64,000 bases of DNA from an uncultured Candidatus Saccharibacteria bacterium (GTDB lineage Bacteria > Patescibacteriota > Minisyncoccia > UBA6257 > 2-01-FULL-56-20). Below the pieces are notes generated by a model. That model made no database searches and was not told the DNA's origin. It saw nothing but the letters and a program-made list of their open reading frames with translations. The DNA lies in assembly GCA_964568535.1 (NCBI GenBank), contig CAZMPQ010000001.1:6183-70182 (forward strand). The letters run 5' to 3'. A program made the translations under genes and the position numbers. Position 1 is the stretch's first letter. Each line of letters starts with the position of its first letter. Shown here in pieces: positions 24,405 through 62,112 of this stretch.

Positions 24405-24752
24405 TTAGAATAAAGTCGGGTGAGCAAACATTTGAGAGGCACCATACATAAAAAAAGCTGTCGATACGAATACCCCCAAAGAAAAGAAGAGAAAAGAAAA
24501 GAAGAGAAAAGAAGAGCCCAATCTTCTTAGCTGTTCTCGAAATCGCTTTATGAAGAAGTTCACCAAGAAAAATGGTAAAGAAAAAACACTGATGATTTCC
24601 AAGATTAGTGAATAAATGTTTTCAAATGGAAAGAGCGCCTTTGGCAAGCTTGGGAATACATCTAACGAATAGGGAATCGTAAAAACTAACAATCCGACTA
24701 CTATGCCACCTAAAAGATTTCCGACATAAAACAAATTTAACTTTTTTTTCAT
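24405..24752 (-). CDS. hypothetical small Phe-rich membrane protein in a low-GC (~30%) patch
   Basis: A 115-aa ORF with three or four hydrophobic segments. It begins MKKKLNLFYVGNLLGGIVVGLL, similar to the partner-protein signal anchors. The local GC content is far below the window average. Confidence 0.35.
   Translation of the reverse strand: MKKKLNLFYVGNLLGGIVVGLLVFTIPYSLDVFPSLPKALFPFENIYSLILEIISVFSLPFFLVNFFIKRFREQLRRLGSSFLFFSFLFFSLGVFVSTAFFMYGASQMFAHPTLF
24481..24516. repeat. simple purine-rich repeat, roughly (GAAAAGAAGA)x3.5
   Basis: The sequence reads gaaaagaagagaaaagaaaagaagagaaaagaagag. Confidence 0.6.
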
Positions 24753-24781: not shown

Positions 24782-26137
24782 TCACCATTTGATTATCCCT
24801 TTAATTCTATAAGGGTCGAAGATGGGGTTTAGCTTAGAACTCCAAAGCATTTCAAAATCGCTTATATCTTGGGTACCCAAGTCAGTCTTGGGCGATACAA
24901 GACCGCAAGTGCTAGTGGAATTATCCATAATATTATTTCCTGTACTATGCGCCAGACCGAGTGCGTGCCCAAGCTCATGCGTAATAGTGCATTGTTTCAT
25001 TGAATTCGTATAAGGATCCATATAGTAAGTATTGAAAAGGATATGAGGTTGGTTTGGTGTGGTTGTAGGAACCCATAATCCTGCTTTTCCCATCCATTGA
25101 CCAACGGTCGAGCTGACGACGTCTACATATATATCCCAATCTGAACCAGATGTAGAGGTTGATTTCTTGAGATTCACATAGCTTGCAGTCGCGTCATTCC
25201 AAGTAATGATTGCGTTTAACATTTGCGCATCATATGGCGTAGAACTGCCTATTCTCATGATATATGGCGATGTGCTTGTATTGACGCCCGGCGGCGACCA
25301 CTCGGTATTGTCAGGACGTGACAAGAACGCCGTGTAATAATTGTCCGCATCAATATAGTCAGAAATCTTCGCACCTGTTCCTGAAGCGTTCTGCGTGGCA
25401 TGCCAGGGTCCGGCGTTCTCCGTAGAACTGTTGGCATCATCCAGCGGATACCACCCACCCCAGAAGTTCAATCTCATTGTGGAGGTCGGACTGCCAGTCT
25501 TCCAAGCACTGCTTGTGCTGTTGTTGTATATCGTGCTCGACGCCACCGTCACCGTCCCGCCGGTAATATACAGGCCGTAATCGTTATCGTGTATCGCTGA
25601 TTCCGTTACCGTCGTCGCGCCTCCCGTGCTGTATATCCCGTAGTCCGAAGCATAGGAGATGTCGGTATATCTCGTATTGAGCGTGCCGCCAGTAACGTAC
25701 ACGGTACTGCCTGCTGTGTTTCCGCCGTATCTCACGACGGTTCCTGCGAGAGTCGTGCTCGCGCCGGAGGTAATTTGAATATTTCCCCAATCCCCTGCGG
25801 CTCCCGTTGAAGTTCCATCTCCATTCAGATCCCCTCCCACGCTGTCGTCTTTGAAGGAGGTGAAATATACGAGGGTAGGGCTCAGTGCTCCTCCTTTCAC
25901 ATCAAGCTCTCCGTTCACGATGAGGGAGGTAGATGGTTTGAACTTGATGATGGTGCCGGGTTCAATGGTGATAGTCTTGCCTGCATTGATGGTGACGGTT
26001 GAGGAGACGATATATGGGCCTTCGGCTTTGGACCAGGTGGTGGAGGTTGCGATGGAGCCGGAGAGGGTGCTGGATGGCTTCGCCACGAGTGGTATGCATA
26101 CAAGCATACCACTTTGTTCTATGCGCTCACAGCTCAC
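24782..26137 (-). CDS. secreted parallel beta-helix plus metzincin zinc-metallopeptidase domain protein (a truncated paralog of the 1058-aa protein, lacking the LamG domains)
   Basis: It is about 85-95% identical to the C-terminal ~440 aa of the 27152..30328 gene product. It carries HELGHALGLAHS. An ATGA overlap couples it to the upstream partner gene. Confidence 0.6.
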   Translation of the reverse strand: MSCERIEQSGMLVCIPLVAKPSSTLSGSIATSTTWSKAEGPYIVSSTVTINAGKTITIEPGTIIKFKPSTSLIVNGELDVKGGALSPTLVYFTSFKDDSVGGDLNGDGTSTGAAGDWGNIQITSGASTTLAGTVVRYGGNTAGSTVYVTGGTLNTRYTDISYASDYGIYSTGGATTVTESAIHDNDYGLYITGGTVTVASSTIYNNSTSSAWKTGSPTSTMRLNFWGGWYPLDDANSSTENAGPWHATQNASGTGAKISDYIDADNYYTAFLSRPDNTEWSPPGVNTSTSPYIMRIGSSTPYDAQMLNAIITWNDATASYVNLKKSTSTSGSDWDIYVDVVSSTVGQWMGKAGLWVPTTTPNQPHILFNTYYMDPYTNSMKQCTITHELGHALGLAHSTGNNIMDNSTSTCGLVSPKTDLGTQDISDFEMLWSSKLNPIFDPYRIKGIIKW

Positions 26138-27117
26138 TGACTGGTTGATGACTGAGCAGGTGCTGGAGGCGTTGAGGTAACGTGGATAGGAGGCGGAGGG
26201 GGCGGAGTTGGTGGTTGGGGTGGAGGCGGATAAAATGGGGCGCAGTCGGGGTCTTGGGCGTCGGTGAGGTTGTCGAGGTCGTTGTCTTTGTTGTCACGAC
26301 AATTCACCTGATGGTCCTCTCGATAATATGGCCGGCAGTTGGGGTCGCCCTGATCGACAAGTCTATCTCCGTCATTATCTATGCCGTCGCGACAACTACT
26401 CCCTGAAGTTTCTGTTGTATCTTGTGGTAGTGGCGGTGGCGGCAATGTCTCTGGCACAGGACGGGGAGGTATGAGTTCAGCAAATTTATTGTGGACTGCC
26501 TGTTTCTCAGCTTGGGAGAGCGACTGGAATAAATTAGCGGCAGATTCGCCTGTTGTGCGTCCGTCAAATGGTATCTCATTCGGATACGCATTGAGTAGTT
26601 CGTATGTCCGCGCGTGTCGTAAAACGAGTTCTCTTAATTGCTCCTTACTCAAGTTGGCGTGCTCACTCACTACGGTCTTAGTCGCCGGATGAAAACCTAC
26701 AAAATACCATGGGCCAGCTTCATCGGGGAGATGAGTAGCTCCAAACAGATACGTTGTGCCGGGTGCAAGTTTATCCCCTTTTGTAGAATCCAAGCTCACA
26801 ACAATCCTATCCTCGGCAATACCTTTGATATTGTAAATAACCTCAACGTCATATTGTGTTCTTGATAAACCCAGTGAGTTATCGCTTCTTCCTGCTTCTG
26901 CAAGCACCTTGCCGGCAAATACATTTTGGTAATAACCAACCAACCTGCGGTTGTTATTGAAGTCAGTTGCCCACGTCGCGGCAATGCCGGATTCTCCCAT
27001 GTTCTTTACGCCTGAGTCAGTTGGTGTCTGAAAACCAACCTGCTGTACACCCCTCATCCCGAGATAGATTGCACCGAAAATCAAGATACTTCCAACGATA
27101 AATAGTCGTTTCTTCAT
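26134..27117 (-). CDS. secreted partner protein: signal anchor, a conserved domain of unknown function, two Cys-bracketed Asp-rich (TSP3-like calcium-binding) repeats, and a poly-proline C-terminal tail
   Basis: Starts MKKRLFIVGSILIFGAIYLG. Carries CRDGIDNDGDRLVDQGDPNC and CRDNKDNDLDNLTDAQDPDC, and ends PPPPQPPTPPPPPPIHVTSTPPAPAQSSTSQ. It is a paralog of the 38053..39054 gene. Confidence 0.6.
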   Translation of the reverse strand: MKKRLFIVGSILIFGAIYLGMRGVQQVGFQTPTDSGVKNMGESGIAATWATDFNNNRRLVGYYQNVFAGKVLAEAGRSDNSLGLSRTQYDVEVIYNIKGIAEDRIVVSLDSTKGDKLAPGTTYLFGATHLPDEAGPWYFVGFHPATKTVVSEHANLSKEQLRELVLRHARTYELLNAYPNEIPFDGRTTGESAANLFQSLSQAEKQAVHNKFAELIPPRPVPETLPPPPLPQDTTETSGSSCRDGIDNDGDRLVDQGDPNCRPYYREDHQVNCRDNKDNDLDNLTDAQDPDCAPFYPPPPQPPTPPPPPPIHVTSTPPAPAQSSTSQ

Positions 27118-27151: not shown

Positions 27152-30100
27152 TTATTGCCATTGAATGATGTTTTTCAATCGGTGCGGATCGAAAATAGGG
27201 TGCAGAGCGGGGGTCCAAAGCAATCGAAAATCGCTTATGTCTTGGGCACTTAGATTGGTCTGCGACGATCCTATCTGGCACGTCTGGTCCATTAAGTTGC
27301 CTTCCGGACTATGCGCCAATCCCAAAGCATGCCCGAGCTCGTGGGTGGTTACGCACTGCTTATTCATCTCGACGCCCATTCGCGCGGTATTGAAGTAAAT
27401 GTGAGCGATGCTAGTTGAAGACGGGATATAAAACCATGCCCAACCTCGAGGAACATAAAGCCCGGCCCAATCCAGTGTAGAACTCGTAATATCTGCCGCG
27501 GCCACATCCCACTGCGAGTTCGGGTACGAACTTGCCTTCTCTAAGTTAATATAACCTACGGTTGTATCATTCCAAGTATCAATGCCATCCTCCAATTGCG
27601 TCTGATATTGAGTAGAACTGCCCACCCGCATCACGTATGTTGATGTATTAGTGTAAACAGCTAACGGCGACCAAGTGTTAACATTAGGATGAGACAAATA
27701 CGCGGTGTAGTAATTGTCCGCGTCTATGTAATCGGATATTTTCGCTCCAGTCCCACTAGTATTCTGCGTAGCGTGCCACGGTCCAGCATTTTCCGTCGAG
27801 GTGTTCTTTTCGCTTGAGCCATCATAAGTATCGTCGAGCGGATACCATCCACCCCAGAAGTTCCATTTCATTGTGGAGGTCGGGCTGCCGGTTTTCCAAG
27901 CACTGCTTGTCGCGTTGTTATATATCGTGCTCGATGCCACCGTCACCGTCCCACCGGTAATATACAGACCGTAATCGTTGTCATGTATCGCTGATTCCGT
28001 TACCGTCGTTGCCCCTCCTGTGCTGTATATGCCGTAGTCCGAGGAGTAGGAGATATCGGTATATCGGGCGTTCAGCGTGCCTCCAGTCACGTAGATGGTA
28101 CTACTTGCAGTGCTTCCACCATAGCGGACAACGCTTCCTGCGATGGTAGTACTCGCCCCCGAGTTGATTTGGATATGCCCCCAATCCCCTGCCACCGGCG
28201 CTGTCGCTCCTCCGTCTCCATTCGTATCCCCACCCACACTGTCATCCTTGTATGACGTGAAATATACGAGCGTGGAGCTCAGTGCTCCTCCCTGCACATC
28301 AAGCTCTCCGTTCACGATGAGGGAGGTAGAGGGTTTGAACTTGATGATGGTGCCGGGTTCAATGGTGATAGTCTTGCCTGCATTGATGGTGACGGTTGAG
28401 GAGACGATATATGGGCCTTCGGCTTTGGACCAGGTGGTGCTGGTTGCGATGGTACCGGAGAGGAGGCCTCCGCAGCCGGAGGATTGGGCGCAGACGCGCC
28501 TGCCCTGACTACTGTTCCAGAGCTTCGTCACTTCGCCTGCGGTCAATGCGCGGTTCAGGACCACCACCTCGTCAATCATAGCAGAGATCTTTCCGTAACC
28601 GCCGCCTGAGGGGTAGCCGCCGTGGGCGCCGATGCCGGTGCCGGTGTCTACCGCCGAGGTGCCGTTCCCGGAGCCAGCGGCTGCCTCGGCCTTGAGGTCG
28701 TTCTGCACATAGAGGCGGAGGCTCGTGCCGTCGAAGGTGCAGGCGACGTGGTACCAGGTGGAAGTTGCGAGGCCGTTCCCGCCATTCGTCCAGGAGGCGG
28801 TCTCGTTCGCGGCGCCCCAGCGATTCCGTTGGCAATAAAGTGTCCTCGTGCTCCCGCCGGTATATTCAATGCCGTAGGCAACATCAGTGCCGCTGTCCAC
28901 GACGGAGACGATTTCCTGGTCTCCGGAGGCGATGCTGGCGAACTTGACCCAGGCCGCGAGAGACATGGCGCCCCCGGAGATACCGAGATTCTCCGACGCG
29001 TAAAGATACTTCGTCGTGTTGTCCGTCCCGAAGTCCGCGGCAGTGCCGAGCACGCCGGTTCCCGTTGCGGCGGGGCCGTAGTTCGTCAGGGTGTAGTGAT
29101 TGCCGCTCGCGTCGGCGGCGAAGTGATGGTCAGTATGGTAGAGCGCTCGGATCGCGCCGTCGGTGATCTGGAGATACGGCGATGGGTCCGTTTCCACCGT
29201 GAAATCAAATACATCCGCCGTCCCGAATTGCGTCCAGGAGGATGTGGCGAAAGTCACAGTGTCCTGCGCCCGCGCGCGCCAGTACCAGGACCCGGGCGTG
29301 ATAGAGGAAACGGTCGTTGACGCCTGTGCGCCAGGCGCGACTGGGGAGCTTGTCTGCGTCATTGGGCCGGCGAACGAGGTGCTCGTTGCGAGCTCCACCT
29401 GGACTATGAGCTGGTTCGTGGATGAGGAGTTCGGGATAGCCTTGAGCACGACGCTCGTCTCCGCCGTCGTTGCTCCTTCGGCGAGCGAGGTCGTACCGTT
29501 AGACTTGAACTGGAGGAGATCGCCGATGCTCGGCGGCGTGGACGACGTGCAGCCTACCGTAACGCAAATCGTATCCCCCGAACCGCTGTTCCAGAGCGCA
29601 TTGCGAGTAGAGGTGGAGATGCGGGTGTTCATGAAAAAGAGCTCATCGATATGGAAGTCACCGAGTGCAGCCGCGTTGCATACGGGATTCACGTTCGCCG
29701 AGCGGCCGTTCACGCAGATATCCGTCGTGAAGTTCGTCGTGTCACTGTCGCTCCCCGAGGTCACGATGGTGTTGTTCACATACCACTCTACCGAGCTTCC
29801 CGTACGGGTCAGGAGATGCCACTGCCAAGCGCCGACTGGCGGGCTGGAGGTGGTGTATTGCATCTCGCAGGGCGGCGTACCGTCCACGAACTCCAGGACG
29901 CCTGCGGCACAGGCCTGCGCACGGCTTATCTGTTCGATGCTGTCAGCTCCCGCACTACGGCGGCTGATCACGGCATCATCGTCCAGGGTCGCTTGTGCAT
30001 TAATCCAGAAACCGATGCTGAAATCACTGGAGAGGTCCATAGCGCTGGACGAGGCTCGGAACCAGCCGGTTCCCTGAGTGTCGCCGGCGTTGCCGAACCA

Positions 30101-30328
30101 ACCGGTCACGTAGGCGGTGCCGCTTGCGGTGAGGTTCCTACCGTTTCCTGAGGAATCGCTTGCATCCTCAAAGTGGTAGAGGGCGGTGACGGAGCTTGAG
30201 GGGATGTATACAGTGGCGGAGGCGGGGTGGGGGAAGAAAAACGCCGCCAAGATGGCGACGGTAGGGACGGCGAGGACAGCGGCGGACGTTATTCCACCGA
30301 ACGGAACGACCCTGGCGTTCCTGAACAT
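27152..30328 (-). CDS. very large secreted surface protein: signal peptide, two LamG_3 (concanavalin A-like) domains, an Ig/FN3-like region, a parallel beta-helix and a C-terminal metzincin (M10-like) catalytic domain
   Basis: Starts MFRNARVVP followed by a hydrophobic helix. The LamG_3 domain ends are ALYHFEDASDSSGNG...IDELFFMNTRISTSTRNALWNSG and ALYHTDHHFAADASGNH...IDEVVVLNRALTAGEVTKLWNSS. The beta-helix repeats include TGGATTVTESAIHDNDYGLYITGG. The zinc motif is THELGHALGLAHS, and the conserved C-terminus is FDPHRLKNIIQWQ. Confidence 0.75.
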   Translation of the reverse strand: MFRNARVVPFGGITSAAVLAVPTVAILAAFFFPHPASATVYIPSSSVTALYHFEDASDSSGNGRNLTASGTAYVTGWFGNAGDTQGTGWFRASSSAMDLSSDFSIGFWINAQATLDDDAVISRRSAGADSIEQISRAQACAAGVLEFVDGTPPCEMQYTTSSPPVGAWQWHLLTRTGSSVEWYVNNTIVTSGSDSDTTNFTTDICVNGRSANVNPVCNAAALGDFHIDELFFMNTRISTSTRNALWNSGSGDTICVTVGCTSSTPPSIGDLLQFKSNGTTSLAEGATTAETSVVLKAIPNSSSTNQLIVQVELATSTSFAGPMTQTSSPVAPGAQASTTVSSITPGSWYWRARAQDTVTFATSSWTQFGTADVFDFTVETDPSPYLQITDGAIRALYHTDHHFAADASGNHYTLTNYGPAATGTGVLGTAADFGTDNTTKYLYASENLGISGGAMSLAAWVKFASIASGDQEIVSVVDSGTDVAYGIEYTGGSTRTLYCQRNRWGAANETASWTNGGNGLATSTWYHVACTFDGTSLRLYVQNDLKAEAAAGSGNGTSAVDTGTGIGAHGGYPSGGGYGKISAMIDEVVVLNRALTAGEVTKLWNSSQGRRVCAQSSGCGGLLSGTIATSTTWSKAEGPYIVSSTVTINAGKTITIEPGTIIKFKPSTSLIVNGELDVQGGALSSTLVYFTSYKDDSVGGDTNGDGGATAPVAGDWGHIQINSGASTTIAGSVVRYGGSTASSTIYVTGGTLNARYTDISYSSDYGIYSTGGATTVTESAIHDNDYGLYITGGTVTVASSTIYNNATSSAWKTGSPTSTMKWNFWGGWYPLDDTYDGSSEKNTSTENAGPWHATQNTSGTGAKISDYIDADNYYTAYLSHPNVNTWSPLAVYTNTSTYVMRVGSSTQYQTQLEDGIDTWNDTTVGYINLEKASSYPNSQWDVAAADITSSTLDWAGLYVPRGWAWFYIPSSTSIAHIYFNTARMGVEMNKQCVTTHELGHALGLAHSPEGNLMDQTCQIGSSQTNLSAQDISDFRLLWTPALHPIFDPHRLKNIIQWQ

Positions 30329-30349
30329 GATTCGATTGTATCTCCAAAG

Positions 30350-30358
30350 CCCCCCCCC
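30350..30358. repeat. homopolymeric tract, C9 on the plus strand (G9 on the coding strand), 21 nt upstream of the ATG of the 1058-aa gene
   Basis: Read directly. On the coding strand the context is CTTGCCTCGGGGGGGGGCTTTGGAGATACAATCGAATCATG, i.e. TTGCCT, then 19 nt including G9, then TACAAT, then 6 nt, then ATG. Confidence 0.8.
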
Positions 30359-34956: not shown

Positions 34957-36432
34957 TCACTTCACACCGGGGGCGCGGCAATCATATACCGCAAAACCAT
35001 ATCCGGGAACGGCGTGCGCAAGTTGGACGCCAAAGAGCTTTGGCGGACGCGACACATAGAACTCGCGCTCCAACGCGCAGCCGCTATAGTGCACCGAAAG
35101 ATCCGGCGATTCCCATTCTTCCGTAATGAGCAGATATTGCGAAGCGCCCGGATTCGCCGGAATTTCCGCAACGAACATCCGGTCGTAGGACTCGGAAAGC
35201 ATCCACATCCGCGAACCGCCAGGCATAAAGGGAGCGCCGGTATGTTTTGCGAGGACATCGGCGAACGCCGCGCGCGCCGCGGGGAGCGTGACGCCGTCAC
35301 GCAGGAAAAGCGGGAAGAGCGCTGCGGGAACGAGCGACAGCGCAGCAAGCATCCCGACGAACACAACAAGCGGATACATTACGCGCTTATCCCTCCGGAT
35401 GCCGGAAGCGGGGTGCAGCAGCGCGGCGAACGCGACGACCACGAATGGCGTGAGGTAGTAGAATCTGGCGTTCGCCGCGGCAAATGCGCCGTAGGCCGCG
35501 AACACGAGCGCTGAGAGCACGACGAGCGCGGGCGAGCCGATAGCGCCGGCACGCATCTTGCGCACGAACAGGCGCACGGCGAAGAATGCGAATATTCCGG
35601 CGAATACCACGAGCGGCGGGCGGCTGAAAAGCGCCGCGGCGATGCCCGCAGGCGTGAGGCGCGACACCATCGCCGAGCCATGGCGCAGCGTGCCGTTTAT
35701 CATCTCGCCGATGGGAAATGGGCTCAATTGCATCACCGCGACGAATGCGACGGCCGCAGTTGCCGCGATAATGGCGAGATACGTTGCGCTTGTGCGCATG
35801 TCGTACCGTATACCGAAGAACATCGCTCCAAGCGCGGCGAACGCGACGGGGATGACCACGTGCGTAGCTACGGTAAACCCGATGAGCGCACCAAGCGCGA
35901 GCGCGAGACGCCGCGGCTCACGAAAAGCGACCGCAGCGACGAGGCCGAGCGTCACAAAAAGGCGGGCGAGTATCTCTGGTCGCGTCCCGAACGTCCACGA
36001 AGCGCGGAAAACGAGGGCAATGCCAACGCAGATAAGAAGCGCGGTTAGCCAATCAAGCCGCGTTCCATCGCTTGACGCGATGCGCATGAGCGACCATGCA
36101 GAAAGCGCGAGCGCTGCGGCCGTGATGAGCGCCATGCCTTTCATCGCCTGGAGCGGCGCAGGTGTTGCAGCGTCCGGCGAGACGAACCAACTAACGACGA
36201 TAGGAAAGAGCGGCGGATACGACAGGAACGGACCGTTCCCGCCGATAAGTTTCGAGTCCAGCCATCGAATGGGGTTTTGCAGATCGCCCGAACGGGCACG
36301 TTCTATGCCCGGCGCCATGAACCACGCGCCGTCGTTCATGCCTGCAGGCGGATAGCCGAACGCGCCGAAGAGCAGCGCAAGCCCTGCGAAAAACGCCGTT
36401 ACGCCGATGACCGTTCCCCGTTGCGCCGTCAT
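34957..36432 (-). CDS. polytopic membrane protein, putative GT-C-fold glycosyltransferase; paralog of the 16844..18388 gene
   Basis: Many TM helices. The C-terminus GVQLAHAVPGYGFAVYDC is shared with the paralog. It is adjacent to a Dpm1-like GT2. Confidence 0.55.
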   Translation of the reverse strand: MTAQRGTVIGVTAFFAGLALLFGAFGYPPAGMNDGAWFMAPGIERARSGDLQNPIRWLDSKLIGGNGPFLSYPPLFPIVVSWFVSPDAATPAPLQAMKGMALITAAALALSAWSLMRIASSDGTRLDWLTALLICVGIALVFRASWTFGTRPEILARLFVTLGLVAAVAFREPRRLALALGALIGFTVATHVVIPVAFAALGAMFFGIRYDMRTSATYLAIIAATAAVAFVAVMQLSPFPIGEMINGTLRHGSAMVSRLTPAGIAAALFSRPPLVVFAGIFAFFAVRLFVRKMRAGAIGSPALVVLSALVFAAYGAFAAANARFYYLTPFVVVAFAALLHPASGIRRDKRVMYPLVVFVGMLAALSLVPAALFPLFLRDGVTLPAARAAFADVLAKHTGAPFMPGGSRMWMLSESYDRMFVAEIPANPGASQYLLITEEWESPDLSVHYSGCALEREFYVSRPPKLFGVQLAHAVPGYGFAVYDCRAPGVK

Positions 36433-38052: not shown

Positions 38053-39054
38053 TTACTGCCCGGTTGAGGTCGGAGCCGGTGCCGGAGGCGTTGAAGTGGG
38101 CGCAGTAGGAGATGGCGCGAAGTTCTCCGGTGGGAGTGGAGCGGAAGGCGGAGGAGGTGGGGGTTGTGGCGGATAGAATTGGGCGCAGTCGGGGTCGGCG
38201 GAGTCGGTGAAACCGTCGCGATCGTTGTCGATGTTGTCTCCACAAAGGGCTGGGAGGTCTTCTCGGAGAGCCCCACCACAGTCGGGATCTGCTTTATCAA
38301 TTAGCCCATCTTTGTCGTTATCTTCTTTATCACCGCAACGACTCCAAGAATTCTCAGGTATACTATCGCGGCTTGTAGAAATGGGAGGCAAAATCTCCGG
38401 CACCGGGCGTGGAGGTATCAACTCCTGGAATTTGTCGTACACTGCTCGCTTGTTCGCTTCAAAAAGGGATTGGAAAGAGTTTATCGTCCGGCCCTTTTGA
38501 ATATCAATATCTCTCAATATCTCGTTCGGATATGCGTTGAGTAATTCATACGTCCTTGAGTGTTTTTTTACAATGTCGGTCAGTTCTTCGTTTGTAAGAC
38601 GCGAACTCTGGCTTATGGACACATGGAAGGCGTTCGGGGAACCAACGTAATACCACGGTTCTGTTTCGGCCCAGTGACGAGCGGCAAGGATATACGTGTT
38701 GCCCGGGACAAGTCGAGCGCCCTCAAATGCTTCTATATCAACTTGTATCCTACCACTCGCAGTGCCTTTGATGTTGTAAAGAACTTCTACTTCGTACTGA
38801 TAATGTGCAAGCTGACTACCTCCAGGGAGTGTTTGAGGATTGTTTCCTCTCTCTGCGAGGACTTTCGCCGCAAAGACCTCTTGGGCGTAGCCCACTAAGA
38901 CGCGCGGATTGTCGTAGTTGATTGCGTATGAAGCTGCGGGGCTAGAATTTTCTTCGTTTTGCCCATTATCAAGGGGTAATTCAGAGTTCACGGCGACATA
39001 GAAACCAACGATAACTGCTACACTGCTTACGATGATGGCTAGTTGCCTTTTCAT
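38053..39054 (-). CDS. secreted partner protein (paralog of the 26134..27117 gene): signal anchor, a conserved domain, two Cys-bracketed Asp-rich repeats and a poly-proline tail
   Basis: Starts MKRQLAIIVSSVAVIVGFYVA. Carries RTYELLNAYPNEI, CGDKEDNDKDGLIDKADPDC and CGDNIDNDRDGFTDSADPDC, and ends PPQPPPPPPSAPLPP...TPPAPAPTSTGQ. Confidence 0.6.
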   Translation of the reverse strand: MKRQLAIIVSSVAVIVGFYVAVNSELPLDNGQNEENSSPAASYAINYDNPRVLVGYAQEVFAAKVLAERGNNPQTLPGGSQLAHYQYEVEVLYNIKGTASGRIQVDIEAFEGARLVPGNTYILAARHWAETEPWYYVGSPNAFHVSISQSSRLTNEELTDIVKKHSRTYELLNAYPNEILRDIDIQKGRTINSFQSLFEANKRAVYDKFQELIPPRPVPEILPPISTSRDSIPENSWSRCGDKEDNDKDGLIDKADPDCGGALREDLPALCGDNIDNDRDGFTDSADPDCAQFYPPQPPPPPPSAPLPPENFAPSPTAPTSTPPAPAPTSTGQ

Positions 39055-39079
39055 TGCATTGTTTAATGTGTTAGGGACC

Positions 39080-42000
39080 TTACCATTGAATGACGTGCTT
39101 CATCCGGTGTGGGTCAAAGAAGTAAGACGGGCTCCAGAGAAGATTGAAATTGAATAAATCTAAAATGCCTAATGTTGTTTGGGGCTCAAGAATTCCTGGG
39201 AAGTAATCGCATGAATGACGCGCCATAATACTATCCCCGTATTCAGTGTGCGATAAACCTAACGCATGACCAATCTCATGGGTTGCAACACATTGTTGCG
39301 AGTCTGAGTAAGAATTCATTCCATTTGTGTTGAATATAATGTGAGCGGTACTCGTAACAAATGGATACCACAATCCCGCCCACGATGAGGTGTCTACTGT
39401 GATATCAGCCACGTATATATCCCAGGTATCACTCGATGACGCACTTGCATTGACGACCATCACATAGCCCGATGACGAAGCGTTCCATGTGCTCATACCA
39501 TCAATAAGTTCTGATTGGTATTGCGTAGAGCTTCCCACTCTCATTTTCAGAGTACTAGAATTCACTCCAGGCGGAGACCATGTTGACTCACTAGGACTCG
39601 CAATAAATGCACTCATGTATGGACTAATGTCAATGTAATCCGATACGTCATCACCTGCTCCTGATGGGTTTTGACCAGAATGGTAAGGTCCTGCGTTGTC
39701 GGTAGATGTAGAGATATCATCAAGCGGAAACCATCCTCCCCAGAAGTTGTTGGTCATCGTAGATGTCGGCCCCGATGCATCGTGGAGCGCACCGTAGCCT
39801 GCAGTCGCATTGCTGAAGACGGTACTTGAAGACATCGTCACATTGTTGCCGCTCGTAACTCTTACGCCGTTGTAGTTGTCGTGTATTGAGGCGTATATGA
39901 TAGTCGTTGTTCCGGCCGTAAGGTACAAACCGTGCGTTTCTGCATAGGAGACATCGCTGTTTCTGATGTTCAGCACTCCCCCGTTGTTGTAGATATTTGC
40001 ATCACTTGCCGCATCTCCTCCGCCATATCTGACAACGCTTCCCACAAGCGTACTGCTCGCACCTGTATTGAACTTGATATGTCCCCAGTCACCTACCGCC
40101 GGCTGCGTCGTACTGTTGTTTGTGTCCCCTCCTACCGCATCATCGTGATACGACGTGAAATATACCAAGGTTGAGCTCAGGGCTCCTCCCTTCACATCAA
40201 GCTCTCCGTTCACGATGAGGGAGGTATTGGGTTTGAACTTGATGACGGTGCCGGACGCTACGGTGATTTTCACGCCGGAGGCGATGGTAGCGGTACTTGT
40301 GACGATGTATGGGGAGAGGTTGTGGGTCCAGGTGGTGCTTGCGGTGATAGTGCCGGAGAGGAGGTTCGCCGTGCCGCACCCTGCCGTCGTACACACTTCC
40401 GCACCGCTTCCGCTGTTCCAGAGCGCATTCCGAGTACTCGTGGATATCCGCGACGTGGACAGGAATAGTTCGTCAATATGCCAGCTGTGCTTGTAGTCGG
40501 CGTTCAAGCCGTTCACCTGGAGATCGGTGGAGTAGTTCGTGGTTGCGCTGTCGGTGAACGAATGTTGGCGCACGTTGTCCACGTAATAATCAACGATCGA
40601 GCCGCTGCGAAGCACTGTTACCCAGTACCACGTGGATGTCGCGAGAGAATAGGAGAAGTTCCCCTTGCAAGTCCCGTTGTGCCTGAACTCAAAGTTGTTT
40701 CCCGCGCACTGGGCGCCATACATCACCGCGTCATTGCTTGTTCCGCCCGTCGTCCTGCCGACAAGGGAAGTGTCGTTCAGGGCTTCCATCGGCTTCATCC
40801 AGAACCCAATAGAGAAGTCCCCCGAAAGGTCCATAGCGGATGAGGACACTGTCCAATATCCGGAACCCTGCGTAATGCCTGCGGTTGATAGCTTGCCCTC
40901 GGTAGATCCTGTCCCCCACGACGTGAGGTGGCGCGCGTTCCCCGAGGCGTCGGACGTGTCCTCAAAATGATACAGGCCGACAACGTTTGAAACCTCTACC
41001 CGCGGATTGGGAACGGTCTCCACCACGACGTCCACCACATTGTCTGTGCCGAATTGTCGCCAAGAGGATGTGGCGTTCGTCGCGGTATCCAGCGCTCTCC
41101 CTCGCCAATACCAGAATCCATCGGGGATGGCCGAGATGGTTGTTGTGGCATACGAGCTCGGAGTCACTGCGGTGCTTGTGCCGTGAAGTGCGTTCGTGAA
41201 CGACGTGCTCGTAGAAAGCTCAACTTGAAGCATGAGGTTGTTTGACGATGAGGAGTTCAAAAAAGCTTTGAAGAATACCGTGCTCTCCGCCGTGGTCGCG
41301 CCCTCGCTCAATGGGGTCGTGCCATCAGCTTTGAACTGCGTTGTTGAGGAGATGACGGGGATAGAGGAGGTCGCACATCCTAGTGTAGCGCATATCTCCG
41401 CCCCACTACCACTTGCCCAGAGCGCATCTTTCGTGCTCGTCGTGATGCGAGCGTTCATGAAAAAGAGTTCGTCCATAAGATAGGCGTGGTTGTACGATGA
41501 GCAACCGCCACCCGAGAGACCAAGGGCGCCGATACAGAGGTCGCTGCTGATATTTCCCGTCTCGCTGTCGGTGAACGGGAATACTACGCTGTTGTTCACA
41601 TAATAATCGGTGTTCGTTCCCGTTCGGGCGATGAGGAACCAGTACCAGGTGTTCGTCGAGAGCGTGTATGCCGAAGTATGGCACGTGTTGTTGTGCTTGA
41701 ACTCAACGTGGCTCCCCGCGCATGTATTCCCATAATACACGCCTTCGCGGGAAGAACCGGATATCCGATCAATGAACGGCGTGTCGTTCAGAGATACCTG
41801 TGGGTATATCCAGAATCCGATAGTGAAGTCGCCCGACAGATCCATAACTGATGACGATGCCCGGAGGAATGCGCCGCTCGCGAAGTTTGCCGCATTGGAC
41901 AGCGTACCAGTTGTGAACGTGGTCCCGGAAGCGTTTACGAGGTCGTGTCGGTTCGCCGATGACGTAACGGAGTCTGTCAGGTTCTCCATGTGGTAGAGGG

Positions 42001-42139
42001 CGGTGATGTTGGGGACGTACACGGCGGCGGAGGCGAAGCTTGGAAACAAAAACGCCACCAGAGTGGCGGCGAGGAACGCGGTGGAGAGAGCAACAAGCGT
42101 TGTTCTTTGTGACGGAACGACCCTGGCGTTCCTGAACAT
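39080..42139 (-). CDS. very large secreted surface protein with the same LamG, LamG, Ig/FN3-like, beta-helix and metzincin architecture (paralog of the 27152..30328 gene)
   Basis: I chose the start at the conserved MFRNARVVP; the ORF extends to 42199 across the poly-G tract. Carries ALYHMENLTDSVTSSANRHDL...MDELFFMNARITTSTKDALWASG, ATHEIGHALGLSH, DSIMARH (the Met-turn) and FDPHRMKHVIQW. Confidence 0.75.
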   Translation of the reverse strand: MFRNARVVPSQRTTLVALSTAFLAATLVAFLFPSFASAAVYVPNITALYHMENLTDSVTSSANRHDLVNASGTTFTTGTLSNAANFASGAFLRASSSVMDLSGDFTIGFWIYPQVSLNDTPFIDRISGSSREGVYYGNTCAGSHVEFKHNNTCHTSAYTLSTNTWYWFLIARTGTNTDYYVNNSVVFPFTDSETGNISSDLCIGALGLSGGGCSSYNHAYLMDELFFMNARITTSTKDALWASGSGAEICATLGCATSSIPVISSTTQFKADGTTPLSEGATTAESTVFFKAFLNSSSSNNLMLQVELSTSTSFTNALHGTSTAVTPSSYATTTISAIPDGFWYWRGRALDTATNATSSWRQFGTDNVVDVVVETVPNPRVEVSNVVGLYHFEDTSDASGNARHLTSWGTGSTEGKLSTAGITQGSGYWTVSSSAMDLSGDFSIGFWMKPMEALNDTSLVGRTTGGTSNDAVMYGAQCAGNNFEFRHNGTCKGNFSYSLATSTWYWVTVLRSGSIVDYYVDNVRQHSFTDSATTNYSTDLQVNGLNADYKHSWHIDELFLSTSRISTSTRNALWNSGSGAEVCTTAGCGTANLLSGTITASTTWTHNLSPYIVTSTATIASGVKITVASGTVIKFKPNTSLIVNGELDVKGGALSSTLVYFTSYHDDAVGGDTNNSTTQPAVGDWGHIKFNTGASSTLVGSVVRYGGGDAASDANIYNNGGVLNIRNSDVSYAETHGLYLTAGTTTIIYASIHDNYNGVRVTSGNNVTMSSSTVFSNATAGYGALHDASGPTSTMTNNFWGGWFPLDDISTSTDNAGPYHSGQNPSGAGDDVSDYIDISPYMSAFIASPSESTWSPPGVNSSTLKMRVGSSTQYQSELIDGMSTWNASSSGYVMVVNASASSSDTWDIYVADITVDTSSWAGLWYPFVTSTAHIIFNTNGMNSYSDSQQCVATHEIGHALGLSHTEYGDSIMARHSCDYFPGILEPQTTLGILDLFNFNLLWSPSYFFDPHRMKHVIQW

Positions 42140-42165
42140 GATGATTGAACGATACCACGGAGGAA

Positions 42166-42177
42166 CCCCCCCCCCCC
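42166..42177. repeat. homopolymeric tract, C12 on the plus strand (G12 on the coding strand), 26 nt upstream of the conserved start of the 1039-aa gene
   Basis: Read directly. On the coding strand the context is GTGCGGGGGGGGGGGGTTCCTCCGTGGTATCGTTCAATCATCATG. With 12 G the tract is in frame with an upstream ATG at 42199. Confidence 0.8.
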
Positions 42178-42199
42178 GCACAAGCGGGGATGTGCACAA

Positions 42200-57622: not shown

Positions 57623-58612
57623 ATGCCCGAACCAATTCTTGTATCAGGAATCCAGCCCTCCGGCCGTCTCCATATCGGGAACTACTTGGGCGCGCTCAAA
57701 AACTTCGTTGACCTGCAGAACTCGCGGAAATATTCCTGCTACTTCTTCCTCGCGGACCTGCACTCGCTCACCGAGTATCCCGCAGGCGCTACGGAGCAGA
57801 AAAAGCGTATTCTAGAACTCACCGCTGATTTTCTCGCGGCTGGTTTGGACCCGAAGAAATCACTCATCTACCAACACTCGCAGATCCCCGCGCATAGCGA
57901 AATGGCGTGGATTTTGAACACCATCACGCCGATGGGCGAACTGGAACGAATGACGCAGTACAAGGACAAGTCCGTGCGCCAACATGAGGTGAACGCTGGC
58001 CTCCTCACCTATCCGACGCTTATGGCCGCGGACATTTTGCTCTACGATGCGAAGTATGTCCCTGTCGGGAACGACCAGGACCAGCACCTTGAGCTCACAC
58101 GCACGCTCGCGCGAAAGTTCAATAAAAAATTTGGGAAGACGTTCGTTGAACCGGAAGGACTCCACACCGCGACTCCGCGTGTGATGTCTTTGAAAGACCC
58201 GTCAAAGAAGATGTCTAAATCTCAGCCGGAGACGTGCCTTTTTCTGGATGAATCCCCCGTTGAGCTAGAGAAGAAGATAAAAAGTGCAACGACCGACTCC
58301 GGAAGCGATGTGCGGTACGATGCGAAGGAAAAGCCGGGCATCTCGAACTTACTTGATATCTACTGCGGCGTAACCGGAAAAACTGTTCCGCAGGCGGTCA
58401 AAGAATTCCGCGGCAAGCAATACGGCGCCTTCAAGCAAAAAGTTGCGGAGGCGGTTGTGAAACATCTCGCGCCGTTCCGCACGAAAAAGGCAGCGCTCAT
58501 GAAAAAACCGACGGTGCTCGCGAAAGTGCTCGCAACCGGCTCGGCAAAAGCGGCGAAAGTCGCAGACGCGAAGATCGCAGGAGTGAAGGAGAAGGTCGGG
58601 CTTGCGCTCTAG
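57623..58612 (+). CDS. trpS: tryptophanyl-tRNA synthetase
   Basis: Carries the HIGH-class motif GRLHIGNYLG, plus KMSKS and GNDQDQHLELTR. Confidence 0.85.
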   Translation: MPEPILVSGIQPSGRLHIGNYLGALKNFVDLQNSRKYSCYFFLADLHSLTEYPAGATEQKKRILELTADFLAAGLDPKKSLIYQHSQIPAHSEMAWILNTITPMGELERMTQYKDKSVRQHEVNAGLLTYPTLMAADILLYDAKYVPVGNDQDQHLELTRTLARKFNKKFGKTFVEPEGLHTATPRVMSLKDPSKKMSKSQPETCLFLDESPVELEKKIKSATTDSGSDVRYDAKEKPGISNLLDIYCGVTGKTVPQAVKEFRGKQYGAFKQKVAEAVVKHLAPFRTKKAALMKKPTVLAKVLATGSAKAAKVADAKIAGVKEKVGLAL

Positions 58613-61600: not shown

Positions 61601-62112
61601 TCCGAGAGCGTCCACCAGATGCTTTCAATATAGTCGGCGGAGTACGTGACATAGGCGTTCTTCAAGTCCAGCCAGTAGCCGATGCGCTCCGTGAGCCGCT
61701 CCCATTCGTCCTTGTAGAGCCAGACGGCTTTTTTCGCCTCTTCGTTGAACTTTTGAACGCCGAACTTTTCTATGTCGGCTTTGGACTTCAATCCGAGCGC
61801 CTTTTCTGCCGCAATCTCCACGGGCAATCCGTGCGTGTCCCACCCAGCTTTGCGCGGCACGCGATATCCCTGCATCGTTTTAAAGCGCAGGATGATGTCT
61901 TTCACGACGCGCGCGAGCACGTGGTGAATGCCCGGCTTCCCGTTCGCGTACGGCGGCCCCTCGTAGAAAACAAATATCTTTTTTCGTTTCGGATCGAGCG
62001 TCTTCTCGAATATCCGATTCGTTTTCCAAAATTCCAGTACTTTTTCCTCCACTTTTGGGAGGTCGAATCCATCGCTCAAAAAGTCACGGCGCGTAGCTGC
62101 CCTCTTTTGCAT
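58609..62112 (-). CDS. ileS: isoleucyl-tRNA synthetase carrying an inserted histidine-phosphatase (PGAM-like) domain
   Basis: Carries PYANGKPGIHHVLARVVKDI, the editing domain, KMSKSKGN and the anticodon-binding region. An insert of about 190 aa (residues ~500-690) carries ALRHGEAEGN...IIASDILRTKETA...ILLVSHEDTI. Confidence 0.85.
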   Translation of the reverse strand: MQKRAATRRDFLSDGFDLPKVEEKVLEFWKTNRIFEKTLDPKRKKIFVFYEGPPYANGKPGIHHVLARVVKDIILRFKTMQGYRVPRKAGWDTHGLPVEIAAEKALGLKSKADIEKFGVQKFNEEAKKAVWLYKDEWERLTERIGYWLDLKNAYVTYSADYIESIWWTLSEIAKKKLLYKGHKVVPWCSRCGTALSSHELAQGYAEVEDQSVYLKFKVLSRPHFKTDGPLFILSWTTTPWTLPGNVALAVGEKVKYALVRPKSAKETYVVAEELAPAVLGKTEYDVIGKVSGEDLVGLEYEPLFKILALKNEAAYKVYPASFVTTTDGTGVVHTAVMYGEDDYQLGVKVGLPQHHTVTEEGIFKKEVPGGLAGMSAKAKETEDKIFAHLTKNKNLLRIEKYKHEYPFCWRCGTPVLYYARTSWFIAMSKLRKELLANNKGITWVPDHIKEGRFGEWLREAKDWNLSRERYWGVPLPIWECKKCDTREVIGSLHELSARGKRAKNAYFALRHGEAEGNIKHIIDSGNQRFHLSTLGKDQVKQAAKRLKKEKIDVIIASDILRTKETAAIVAKELGIKKVLFDKRLREIQLAELSGRPVGEYQKKIPEQEMRFSEHAVPRAESLRDVRTRAWDFLQGTEKAYAGKRILLVSHEDTIWMLSQIANGWTEKETAEKKSLHNDVFMRTGEVVPLELKTIPRNDTGEVDLHRPFADELTLPCKKCKGEMRRVPEVADVWYDSGAMPYAQEHFPFVKRGKRPSAFPADYISEGIDQTRGWFYTLVAIATALGYPAPFKNVVCLGLVNDKNGQKMSKSKGNIVEPFAVIEKYGVDAVRWYLYTNSPLGEPKNFDEVDIQKTFRRVHLIVYNSLIFWRTYAAKVSGVKYQVSGNVLDSWILARLNETIAEATKQLEQYEIREAALAIETLVDDLSRWFIRRSRRRLQKPDSKADYEAASAMLAHVLRETAKLMAPFTPFFAESIYHGLGEKESVHLDTWPALDKKQMDAKLVAAMGEIRRIASVALAKRAELGIKVRQPLASVRVRYQVSGVKSNKELISILKDEINVKEIVWDDATKNDEVVFDTTITPELKAEGTLRDLVRMVQELRQNAGLQAKDAIVLMVEAPSVGAIVQENEKFLKTEVGAKTIEYKKGKFTAEIQAKLDGVDIWLGVRKV

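Follow-up and report, generated by a model that had tools for sequence, protein, structure and literature searches.

Serralysin-inhibitor operons are diderm, periplasmic systems, and their inhibitors (AprI, Inh), which protect the producer, form a barrel of eight strands and insert an N-terminal trunk into the active site. The closest precedents for the locus described here are the mtz-tim pair of Listeria and the potempins of Tannerella. In Listeria monocytogenes, Mtz-Tim corresponds to LMRG_00713/00714; Tim is TIMP-like, membrane-anchored and cut by Mtz approximately 50 residues from its N-terminus, and the pair, for which a mobile-element or phage-derived origin has been proposed, sensitises the cell wall (Boichis et al., 2021; PMC8235301). 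The peptidases that the OB-fold potempins (PotA, PotC, and PotD) inhibit are co-transcribed with them, and karilysin, an MMP-like enzyme, is one of these (PMC9890683).

The window analysed here, a 64,000-nt stretch of DNA from a Saccharibacteria-like CPR bacterium, carries two full cassettes, each with a protease gene (A) followed by a partner gene (B), and a truncated third protease gene, giving a copy number of 2.5. We put the probability at roughly 0.6 that the two genes of each cassette form an operon, encoding an extracellular protease together with a membrane-bound protein dedicated to binding it. The genes are:

39080..42139 (-): A2, secreted modular metalloprotease, 1019 aa, stop included (ORF and translation)
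38053..39054 (-): B2, membrane-anchored partner, 333 aa, stop included (ORF and translation)
27152..30328 (-): A1, protease paralogue, 1058 aa
26134..27117 (-): B1, partner paralogue, 327 aa
24782..26137 (-): A1t, truncated third protease copy, 451 aa, beta-helix plus metzincin

The A2 and B2 ORFs lie where the sequence-only reading had placed them, and the A2 N-terminus MFRNARVVP, the motif HEIGHALGLSH...DSIM and the C-terminal end FDPHRMKHVIQW were all found in the translation; the truncated paralogue A1t was absent from that reading. The A2 ORF is open further 5' to a TTG at 42199, and its ATG start agrees with the paralogue and with public gene call P0001. B2 lies 25 nt downstream of A2, with no terminator-like site found between them, and the A-B gaps span 25-34 nt, again free of such a site. 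A1t directly follows B1, the GTG start of A1t overlapping the B1 stop (caGTGAgc), and has neither a signal peptide nor a B gene of its own.

Previously described as a giant surface protein, A is reidentified here as a modular secreted MMP-like protease, with the domain order LamG, unassigned domain, LamG, right-handed beta-helix and M10/MMP-like metzincin. In A2 these features are placed as follows:

42026..42139 (-): signal peptide, aa 1-38, from MFRNARVVP to PSFASA, followed by AV (inferred from translation)
41360..42007 (-): first LamG module, alpha subtype, ~aa 45-260 (Pfam PF13385, two stretches; subtype comparison)
40985..41332 (-): conserved inter-LamG domain, ~aa 270-385, 53-54 % identical to A1
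40370..40984 (-): second LamG module, alpha subtype, ~aa 386-590 (Pfam best stretch 425-539)
39740..40360 (-): right-handed parallel beta-helix, ~aa 594-800 (AF2 model)
39083..39562 (-): metzincin (M10/MMP-like) catalytic domain, ~aa 860-1019 (Pfam PF00413 and profile)
39248-39280 (-): zinc-binding motif HEIGHALGLSH
39224-39226 (-): Met-turn, Met972

A basic n-region, hydrophobic core and ASA cleavage motif point to Sec export of A2 with a cleavable signal peptide. Pfam Laminin_G_3 and Peptidase_M10 both score above the gathering cutoff in A2, the latter (PF00413) at 28.8 bits against a cutoff of 24 in a match that spans the active-site third of the profile only; the domain between the LamG modules has no Pfam match. 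Among PDB sequences, an A-family profile matches the catalytic domains of MMP-1/3/8/10/12/14 and of serralysin (E 2e-5 to 1e-3), and HExxHxxGxxH and the Met-turn are conserved in the three copies and 15 family members. The AF2 model has a metzincin-like topology (strand-helix-4 strands-helix-helix); both AF2 models of this study used shallow input alignments, 14-15 sequences deep, and have a mean pLDDT of 77-79. The domain order reported as common to A2 and A1 holds at fold level but not for the second LamG, whose subtype differs: that of A2 is 46 % identical to the first LamG of A1 and 28 % to the second, which is of a different (beta) subtype and 25-28 % identical to either A2 LamG. The A proteins are rich in Ser/Thr and N-x-S/T sequons, and their beta-helix module also occurs elsewhere in CPR proteins, joined there to M23 peptidoglycan peptidases.

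The partner, taken earlier for a small secreted protein, proves to be membrane-anchored with a predicted TIMP/NTR-like fold. The parts of B2 are:

38986..39051 (-): N-terminal hydrophobic helix, aa 2-23 (AF2 model)
38926-38985 (-): disordered linker, aa 24-43 (AF2 pLDDT < 50)
38410..38922 (-): NTR/TIMP-like OB-fold domain with flanking helices, aa 45-215 (AF2 model and Foldseek)
38179..38349 (-): two acidic double-disulfide repeats, aa 236-292 (NCBIfam NF033662)

The linker is unconserved in the family alignment, and a Pro/Thr-rich tail follows the disulfide repeats to 38056. B2 has no match in Pfam; its repeats score 56.6 bits against NF033662 (cutoff 41) and give weak matches to the teneurin Cys-rich region. 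The core of the B2 model has a pLDDT of 85-97, and an independent Foldseek search with it returned TIMP-2 as top match (E 5e-5), the best structural matches of B being TIMPs and NTR modules. The fold of B is thereby predicted to resemble that of the TIMPs, the animal protease inhibitors. Sequence and profile comparison found no relation between B and TIMPs (hhalign probability at most 0.3 %), and a motif resemblance between B2 and TIMP-2 (z ~4) is absent from other family members and other TIMPs. Assignment of B as a true TIMP was rejected, given that its OB domain has zero cysteines and no disulfides, that B has no free N-terminal Cys1, that sequence similarity is lacking, and that the fold alone is common. 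The combination of an MMP-like A with a TIMP/NTR-fold B points to an enzyme-regulator pair.

This combination recurs. Each of the 13 loci examined, from several CPR lineages, has a B-family gene placed right after a metzincin gene; the loci are those of the window (2), a Saccharibacteria MAG (3), L002, L003, L004, L006, L007/8 (Giovannonibacteria), L009, L010, and L011. The N-terminal protease modules differ among the 13, and at the Giovannonibacteria locus the protease and B-like genes have a 94-aa ORF between them.

We infer that A leaves the cell through Sec by way of a cleavable signal peptide, that its two LamG modules and beta-helix are presumptive glycan- or surface-binding modules, and that it acts on its putative substrates through the C-terminal MMP/serralysin-like metzincin domain. 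B would be anchored in the cytoplasmic membrane by its N-terminal helix, a flexible linker of ~20 residues carrying the NTR/TIMP-type OB barrel, which is followed by the pair of acidic disulfide repeats and a stalk rich in Pro and Thr. The most likely role of the TIMP-fold domain would be physical binding of the A metzincin domain, which may hold the protease in a latent state or tether it to the producer's own surface, like potempins and serralysin inhibitors; alternatively, A may cut B in the linker and free it, as Listeria Mtz does to Tim. The cassette thus has the look of an enzyme paired with a dedicated regulator rather than of a coat protein with a purely antigenic role.

It is possible, though unlikely, that B is instead a membrane-anchored maturation factor or docking receptor that folds, activates or tethers A in the manner of lipase-specific foldases (Lif), which are all-alpha and encoded downstream of their lipase. 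B has the Lif-type topology (N-terminal anchor, variable linker, folded domain), its gene directly follows that of the enzyme, and it has neither the inhibitory N-terminus of TIMPs nor its cysteines; against this, the modelled OB barrel differs from the all-alpha foldases, bacterial OB- or TIMP-fold peptidase partners are known as inhibitors or substrates, and A, as read from its sequence, has no recognisable prodomain needing a foldase.

The history of the cassettes is one of old duplication. Aligned pairwise by BLASTP, A2 and A1 are 45 % identical end to end (769 bits) and B2 and B1 46 % (E 1e-79), so that homology extends far beyond the first 35 nt; with the swapped LamG subtypes and the gene-conversion tracts described below, this upholds the proposal that a two-gene module was duplicated and diversified. 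Both cassette positions are also present in a syntenic Saccharibacteria MAG (identities: Gmd 80 %, A2 orthologue 54 %, B1-like gene 56 %), and the duplication is therefore old, stably inherited and predates the split from that MAG. dN/dS was < 1 in every measurable window, with dS saturated. A1t is 73 % identical in amino acids to the C-terminal half of A1 with dN/dS (omega) ~0.17, and all three copies, A1t included, retain an intact zinc-binding motif and Met-turn, which argues that A1t is not a silent pseudogene. The copies have diverged under purifying selection since the old duplication.

Several elements in and upstream of the A genes bear on how these copies interact:

42112..42142 (-): 31 nt shared without mismatch with 30301-30331, covering the 3 nt before the A2 CDS and its first 28 nt
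40193..40226 (-): 34-nt core (STSLIVNGELDV) at the A2 beta-helix start, identical in A1 (28295-28328) and A1t (25898-25931)
42166..42177 (-): poly-G tract of 12 nt (coding strand), 27-38 nt before the A2 ATG
30350-30358: 9-nt G tract upstream of A1, counterpart of the former
42191..42198 (-): palindromic TGTGCACA motif, just past the stop of the gene upstream of A2

The identical 5' end of A1 and A2 is real but 31 nt long, not ~35; within the window it is confined to these two 5' ends, and it holds the inverted repeat GGAACG-N7-CGTTCC. The 34-nt core differs at 6-8 of 34 positions in the related MAG copies, so its identity in A2, A1, and A1t points to intragenomic gene conversion; A1 and A1t share identical runs of 108 and 36 nt. 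Gene-conversion tracts link all three genes. G/C runs of at least 7 nt occur in the window only as the two tracts just upstream of A1 and A2 (at least 9 nt: 2 observed, 0.29 expected; at least 12 nt: 1 observed, 0.01 expected), and these may render expression of both A genes switchable. Related T[GA]TGCA[CT]A motifs precede the ATG by 51-59 nt in A1, A2, the second A gene of the MAG and the A-like gene of L003.

The sequence-only reading saw in these cassettes a surface module typical of antigenically variable families. In an antigenically or phase-variable family, surface variation would be the main role, partial copies would act as conversion donors and poly-G tracts would switch expression. 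We consider this improbable, although the poly-G and conversion tracts (31 nt, the 34-nt core in three copies, 108 plus 36 nt) to some degree allow for expression that switches or recombines. The swapped LamG subtypes, the signal-less fragments after B genes here and in the related MAG, the restriction of long G tracts in the window and the 22.6-kb MAG contig to sites upstream of A genes, and the sequon- and Ser/Thr-rich composition of A within a glycan island all fit such a family; a duplication older than the MAG split at conserved positions, dN/dS < 1 throughout, catalytic motifs intact in all copies, an A1t omega of ~0.17, only two full copies, and a between-genome divergence of A and B (33-56 %) inside the range of neighbouring glycan genes (31-80 %) do not. 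Under the enzyme-regulator reading, the two cassettes and A1t would derive from the old duplication inside the surface-glycan island, and occasional segmental conversion with LamG-module replacement suggests two target specificities, not antigenic decoys.

The glycan-gene surroundings noted earlier (GT2, GT10, C-methyltransferase, epimerases, Gmd, Wzy_C) were confirmed, and the lower GC claimed for the cassettes is restricted to the B genes, with a GC3 of 0.45-0.49, and to the final third of the A genes (0.47-0.57); the N-terminal two-thirds of A are flank-like (0.67-0.80; flanks 0.65-0.82). A horizontally acquired, mobile-element or phage-derived metzincin-B core acting on the cell wall, its own or that of a host bacterium, and not on environmental proteins, would suit the low GC3 of B1, B2, A1t, and the metzincin-coding third of A (0.45-0.57), the serine recombinase, TrwB-like and relaxase genes adjoining the L003 pair, the beta-helix fusions to M23 peptidases and the cell-wall effect of the Listeria pair (PMC8235301), but is improbable given no match in 50,697 phage records, 72,556 plasmids or PHROGs, no integrase or repeats flanking the cassettes within the window, and cassette positions conserved across two diverged genomes.

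Among known systems, the animal MMP-TIMP system and NTR modules (MEROPS I35; Pfam TIMP, NTR) likewise pair an MMP-like catalytic motif with a TIMP/NTR-fold partner, whereas B differs from animal TIMPs in the N-terminal, disulfide and sequence features given above. Serralysin operons (AprA-AprI, PrtA-Inh) also set an M10 metzincin gene beside that of a small dedicated proteinaceous inhibitor, but their enzymes, unlike A, have RTX repeats and a type I secretion signal. T. forsythia combines secreted KLIKK peptidases, including an MMP-like M10 enzyme, with small membrane-anchored beta-barrel inhibitors (karilysin-PotA; PMC9890683) and has several paralogous enzyme-inhibitor pairs per genome; its potempins, however, are outer-membrane lipoproteins of 98-132 residues encoded upstream of their peptidases, whereas B is larger, multi-domain and encoded downstream, and no sequence relation between B and potempins was found. 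With Listeria Mtz-Tim the locus shares a secreted metzincin (HExxHxxGxxH plus Met-turn) followed by a membrane-anchored partner without its own promoter, a partner that resembles TIMP by fold and not by sequence, and ~45-50 N-terminal residues (anchor plus linker) before the TIMP-like domain, where Mtz cuts Tim. The locus also differs from Mtz-Tim: the metzincin of A is the C-terminal domain of a ~1000 aa protein with LamG and beta-helix modules, B is anchored by a transmembrane helix in place of a lipobox and bears extra acidic disulfide repeats and a Pro/Thr tail, and the window lacks a cI/cro switch or mobile-element context, the A-B unit being instead duplicated in a glycan island, with poly-G tracts, in a CPR host.

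Two cassettes, each consisting of a gene for a large secreted protease (A) and, on its 3' side, a gene for a membrane-anchored partner (B), were placed by the ORF map and translations as colinear units on the minus strand of the window, with a truncated third protease copy (A1t) after B1:

39080-42139, minus strand: A2, large protease, 1019 aa
38053-39054, minus strand: B2, partner of A2, 333 aa
27152-30328, minus strand: A1, large protease, 1058 aa, about 12 kb from A2/B2
26134-27117, minus strand: B1, partner of A1, 327 aa
26134-26140, minus strand: overlap of the B1 stop with the A1t GTG start (caGTGAgc)
24782-26137, minus strand: A1t, truncated paralogue, 451 aa, beta-helix and protease domains only

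The sequence-only reading had proposed duplication and diversification of a two-gene module, and this is real. A2 and A1 align end to end at 45 % identity (BLASTP), and B2 and B1 at 46 % (BLASTP, E 1e-79); the large ORFs are therefore homologous over their full length, and homology limited to the 5' nucleotides, which had been named as the outcome that speaks against duplication, is ruled out. The features described for A2, namely the N-terminus MFRNARVVP, the HEIGHALGLSH...DSIM motif and the C-terminus FDPHRMKHVIQW, were all found in its translation. The A2 ORF reaches a TTG at 42199; the ATG at 42139 agrees with the paralogue and with the public gene call. The laminin G-like (LamG) modules fall into two subtypes, and because A2 has an alpha-alpha and A1 an alpha-beta arrangement, the second LamG is the region in which the two proteins are least alike (28-29 %). 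The lower GC attributed to the cassettes as a whole holds for the B genes, for A1t and for the third of A that codes for the protease (GC3 0.45-0.57), and not for the remainder of A, where GC3 is 0.67-0.80 and comparable to that of the flanks (0.65-0.82). Directly 3' of A1t, a 115-aa multi-pass membrane ORF (24405-24752, minus strand; GC 0.35) marks a GC trough at 24-25 kb, and a scan against PHROGs gave no family match for it. Elsewhere, a 1167-aa class I tRNA-synthetase ORF (58609-62112, minus strand; Pfam tRNA-synt_1, IleRS-like) carries a histidine-phosphatase domain (PF00300, E 7e-33) at aa 509-668, inserted between the halves of the catalytic domain, and a search of Rfam returned one tRNA-Leu and nothing else.

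The contig CAZWBU010000010.1 of a metagenome-assembled genome labelled "uncultured Candidatus Saccharibacteria" is syntenic with the window. Its order is Wzy (50 %), a hypothetical gene, Gmd (80 %), a hypothetical gene, an epimerase (66 %), an A2 orthologue (54 %) with its B, gene fragments, a 491-aa hypothetical protein (37 %), a GT2 (38 %), a C-methyltransferase (31 %) and finally a second A (45 % to both window copies) with its B (56 % to B1). Both cassette positions are thus syntenic, and the duplication is older than the split of the two genomes; the divergence of A and B between them lies inside the range of the neighbouring genes. An assembly artefact or collapsed strains can be dismissed, since the flanks of the two cassettes differ and the independent genome has the same layout.

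Pfam placed two Laminin_G_3 stretches and Peptidase_M10 on the A proteins, all over the gathering score, the latter (PF00413) with scores of 28.8 and 30.3 bits (cutoff 24) and spanning only about positions 103-155 of the 159 in the profile. A profile of the C-terminal half matched, among PDB sequences, the active-site region of MMP-1, -3, -7, -8, -10, -12 and -14 and of serralysin (E 2e-5 to 1e-3); in a fold search with the same half, beta-helix proteins were the sole matches, with no metzincin fold among them. The zinc motif HExxHxxGxxH reads HEIGHALGLSH in A2 and HELGHALGLAH in A1 and A1t, its H, E, H, G and H being invariant in 15 family members, and the Met-turn, aligned to GALMY of MMP-1, reads GDSIM in A2, GNLM in A1 and NNIM in A1t. 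Motif and Met-turn are kept in all three window copies and across the 15 homologues. Neither the cysteine-switch prodomain of matrixins (PRCGxPD) nor the RTX repeats and C-terminal secretion signal of serralysins occur in the translations of A1, A2 and A1t, which argues that the A proteins are, as judged from sequence, M10-like enzymes and neither canonical matrixin zymogens nor serralysins. The N-terminus of A1 and A2 is probably a cleavable Sec signal peptide, with cleavage between ASA and A. The full-length architecture is very rare (5 matches in 5.8 billion proteins); about 30 CPR proteins are related to the beta-helix-metzincin half, among them a "matrixin family metalloprotease" of Candidatus Giovannonibacteria, and the beta-helix is also found fused to M23 peptidases in other CPR proteins. 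Serine and threonine make up 24-26 % of A, and N-x-S/T sequons occur at 1.4-2.2 per 100 aa, compared with 0-0.6 in neighbouring genes. Two paralogous proteins of about 500 aa (34957-36432 and 16844-18388, both minus strand) have no family assignment or a weak one to GT87, and one of the pair also lies between the cassettes in the syntenic genome (37 %); they are possibly membrane glycosyltransferases, for which A and B, rich in Ser/Thr and in sequons, could be substrates.

The partner has no match in a Pfam scan, and NCBIfam recognized two acidic double-disulfide repeats in its C-terminal part and nothing else (38179-38349, minus strand, in B2). When PDB sequences were searched by profile with B, the sole match was the teneurin Cys-rich region, over the acidic repeats, with none in the OB domain. 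The sequence matches between these repeats and the Cys-rich region in animal teneurins are weak (E 1e-4 to 0.05), and an exhaustive search found up to 28 of them per protein in giant proteins. A structure model of B2, built with 14 homologues (mean pLDDT 78.9; core 85-97), consists of a helix at residues 2-23, a disordered and unconserved linker at 24-43 and a beta barrel with flanking helices at 45-215, the arrangement that characterizes the NTR fold. Foldseek with this model returned TIMP-2 as the top match (E 4.8e-5), with additional complexes of TIMP-2 and TIMP-1, C4, the NTR domain of PCOLCE and NtA next in rank.

Mature TIMPs begin with Cys1, the alpha-amino group of which chelates zinc. 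B2 has no such cysteine or free N-terminus: a transmembrane helix and linker precede the domain, and residues 1-239 contain no Cys. Nor is the disulfide pattern of the TIMP N-domain present, the OB domain being cysteine-free in every aligned member of the family. Profiles of 14 and 40 B sequences, compared by hhalign with TIMP-2 and with an alignment of four TIMPs (TIMP sequences entered by hand), gave probabilities of 0.3 % and 0.14 %. A common register of B2 and TIMP-2 with the same spacing (NPR~HPQ, AAKV~RAKAV and QYE..KG~QYE..KG; z ~4 in an ungapped test) was considered as a signal of homology; it fails with 19 other family members and with TIMP-1, -3 and -4, and is therefore taken as chance. 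The lack of a sequence link to TIMPs, of N-domain cysteines and of a free N-terminus argues that B, as modelled, shares the TIMP fold and is not a member of the TIMP family. The family comprises 14 close relatives, and in an exhaustive profile search about 40 of the top 150 cluster representatives matched the OB-domain region, all with the anchor-linker-domain order and none with a Pfam match.

A metzincin gene lies directly 5' of the B-family gene at 13 of 13 readable loci: two in the window, three on CAZWBU010000010.1, and one each at L002, L003, L004, L009, L006 (Patescibacteria), L007/L008 (Giovannonibacteria, with a small ORF between the two genes), L010 and L011. The N-terminal modules of the protease vary between loci; the adjacency of metzincin and B is constant. 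In the window, A and B are separated by 25 and 34 nt, and neither interval contains a terminator-like site. At L003 (9601-13629), on one metagenomic contig, the metzincin-B pair adjoins serine-recombinase, TrwB-like ATPase and relaxase genes, which hints that the module is able to travel on mobile elements. A phage or plasmid origin of the cassette was considered and rejected, as tblastn searches of phage records and plasmids with B2 and metzincin-domain queries, as well as PHROGs, produced no matches.

Several stretches clearly point to homogenization within the genome. The identical 5' end of A1 and A2, put at about 35 nt in the sequence-only reading, exists and measures 31 nt (42112-42142 = 30301-30331), with no further occurrence in the window. 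At the start of the beta-helix, A1 (28295-28328), A2 (40193-40226) and A1t (25898-25931) have a 34-nt core in common without a single difference, the copies in the syntenic genome differing from it at 6-8 positions, and identical runs of 108 and 36 nt occur between A1 and A1t (P ~1e-13). Truncated copies begin at the beta-helix start in both genomes; together with the conversion core, this indicates that the beta-helix start acts as a junction at which the N-terminal binding modules recombine with the C-terminal enzyme module. The suggestion that the family is antigenically variable was not borne out. dN/dS was below 1 in every measurable stretch, although, as dS is saturated in the A1-A2 as well as the B1-B2 comparison, this states only that omega is below 1 where measurable and is not a test for positive selection. 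The sole partial copy, A1t, does not have the features of a silent cassette: it has an intact ORF and catalytic motif and is under purifying selection (dN/dS ~0.17 against A1). A1t lacks a signal peptide and a partner gene of its own. The caGTGAgc at the B1-A1t boundary recurs in the syntenic genome (L001 12104-12113, plus strand) between a B gene and a LamG fragment that lacks a signal; this recurrence could reflect translational coupling or a recombination scar.

Upstream of each full-length A gene lies a poly-G tract:

30350-30358, coding strand (minus): G9 tract just upstream of A1
42166-42177, coding strand (minus): G12 tract just upstream of A2

These are the sole G/C runs of at least 7 nt in the 64-kb window. 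Against a first-order Markov model, runs of at least 6 are depleted (7 observed, 19.5 expected), those of at least 9 number 2 (0.29 expected, p ~0.035) and those of at least 12 number 1 (0.01 expected). The second A gene of the syntenic genome has a G8 at the homologous place, 3' of the same TGCACATCCCCGC motif, the only such run in that 22.6-kb contig; no poly-G is present at its A2 orthologue or at the L003 gene. With these tracts, the 5' regions of A1 and A2 have the anatomy of a putative contingency locus. Two metagenome scans, with a 23-nt 5' element and with the motif TGCACATCCCCGC-N5-CG7, found no further copies, and in a regulon search GAACG-N7-CGTTC was exact only at the two A genes, near matches being at chance level. 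Leaderless mRNA as a property of A was rejected, since most genes in the window are without a Shine-Dalgarno sequence and its absence is not specific to A; a structured 5' RNA leader was likewise set aside, its folding z-scores (-0.8 and -1.8) being unconvincing. In the A2 orthologue of the syntenic genome, an inverted repeat GAACGCC...ACGTTC directly follows the ATG (L001 5714-5750, plus strand) and resembles GGAACGCCAGGGTCGTTCC of the window (42112-42139, minus strand) in another reading frame; coincidence is one possible reason, an element at the DNA or RNA level another. The best two terminator-like hairpins between 24.3 and 43.3 kb (8 bp and a T run; 42053-42071 and 30242-30260, minus strand) are both located within the part of A2 and A1 that encodes the signal peptide, some 70-90 nt past the ATG, with pairing kept via one-sided changes, and may be a by-product of Ala/Phe codons or an attenuator.

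Attachment to host bacteria is the way of life of Saccharibacteria and other CPR bacteria, most of whose surface and secreted proteins have no annotation. Two "dark" families would here gain a concrete and testable role, as a modular glycan-binding MMP-like protease and its dedicated, predicted TIMP-fold membrane partner, and across CPR lineages the two are conserved together. With the poly-G tracts there is a simple route to asking whether CPR bacteria phase-vary; the papers found in a literature search on phase variation or homopolymeric tracts matched with Saccharibacteria make no mention of this group. If B inhibits MMP-like enzymes, it would also bear on the origin of the MMP-TIMP system. 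We regard as improbable a far-reaching scenario in which the B family and the animal NTR/TIMP module are truly related and the prokaryotic form has stayed genetically coupled to an MMP-like protease, so that the MMP-TIMP pairing would be pre-animal or exchanged with animals, and in which the duplicated pairs of this CPR epibiont act as a contingency system that poly-G switches and gene conversion shuffles, setting which host-cell surfaces can be attacked.

The cassette is best read as a CPR version of a gene pairing that is rare in bacteria, namely of a metzincin with a TIMP-fold partner; such pairings of metzincins with TIMP-like or OB-fold proteins are hereby extended, in a new architecture, from Firmicutes and Bacteroidota to CPR bacteria. 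In Listeria and other Firmicutes, a secreted metzincin (Mtz) is directly followed by a membrane-anchored TIMP-like protein (Tim) that resembles TIMPs in structure and not in sequence, and Mtz cuts Tim about 50 residues from its N-terminus, freeing a TIMP-like fragment (Boichis et al., 2021; PMC8235301). The likeness lies in the metzincin gene immediately 5' of that for a TIMP-fold protein, at 13/13 loci here, and in the membrane anchoring of B, with its helix at 2-23, linker of about 20 residues and domain from about residue 45; the anchor of B differs in being a transmembrane helix with no lipobox. The potempins of Tannerella forsythia, OB-fold or eight-stranded proteins that are membrane-anchored and co-transcribed with their own peptidases, inhibit these at nanomolar Ki, the MMP-like karilysin included (PMC9890683), and serralysin-Inh operons provide a third analogue. 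By analogy with these precedents, we infer that an enzyme with a dedicated binding or regulatory partner is the best explanation of the cassette. B would then inhibit and tether A or, alternatively, A would cleave and release B in the manner of Mtz-Tim. The CPR version of the pairing is new in architecture; it is also present in duplicate within a glycan island and is accompanied by possible switch elements.
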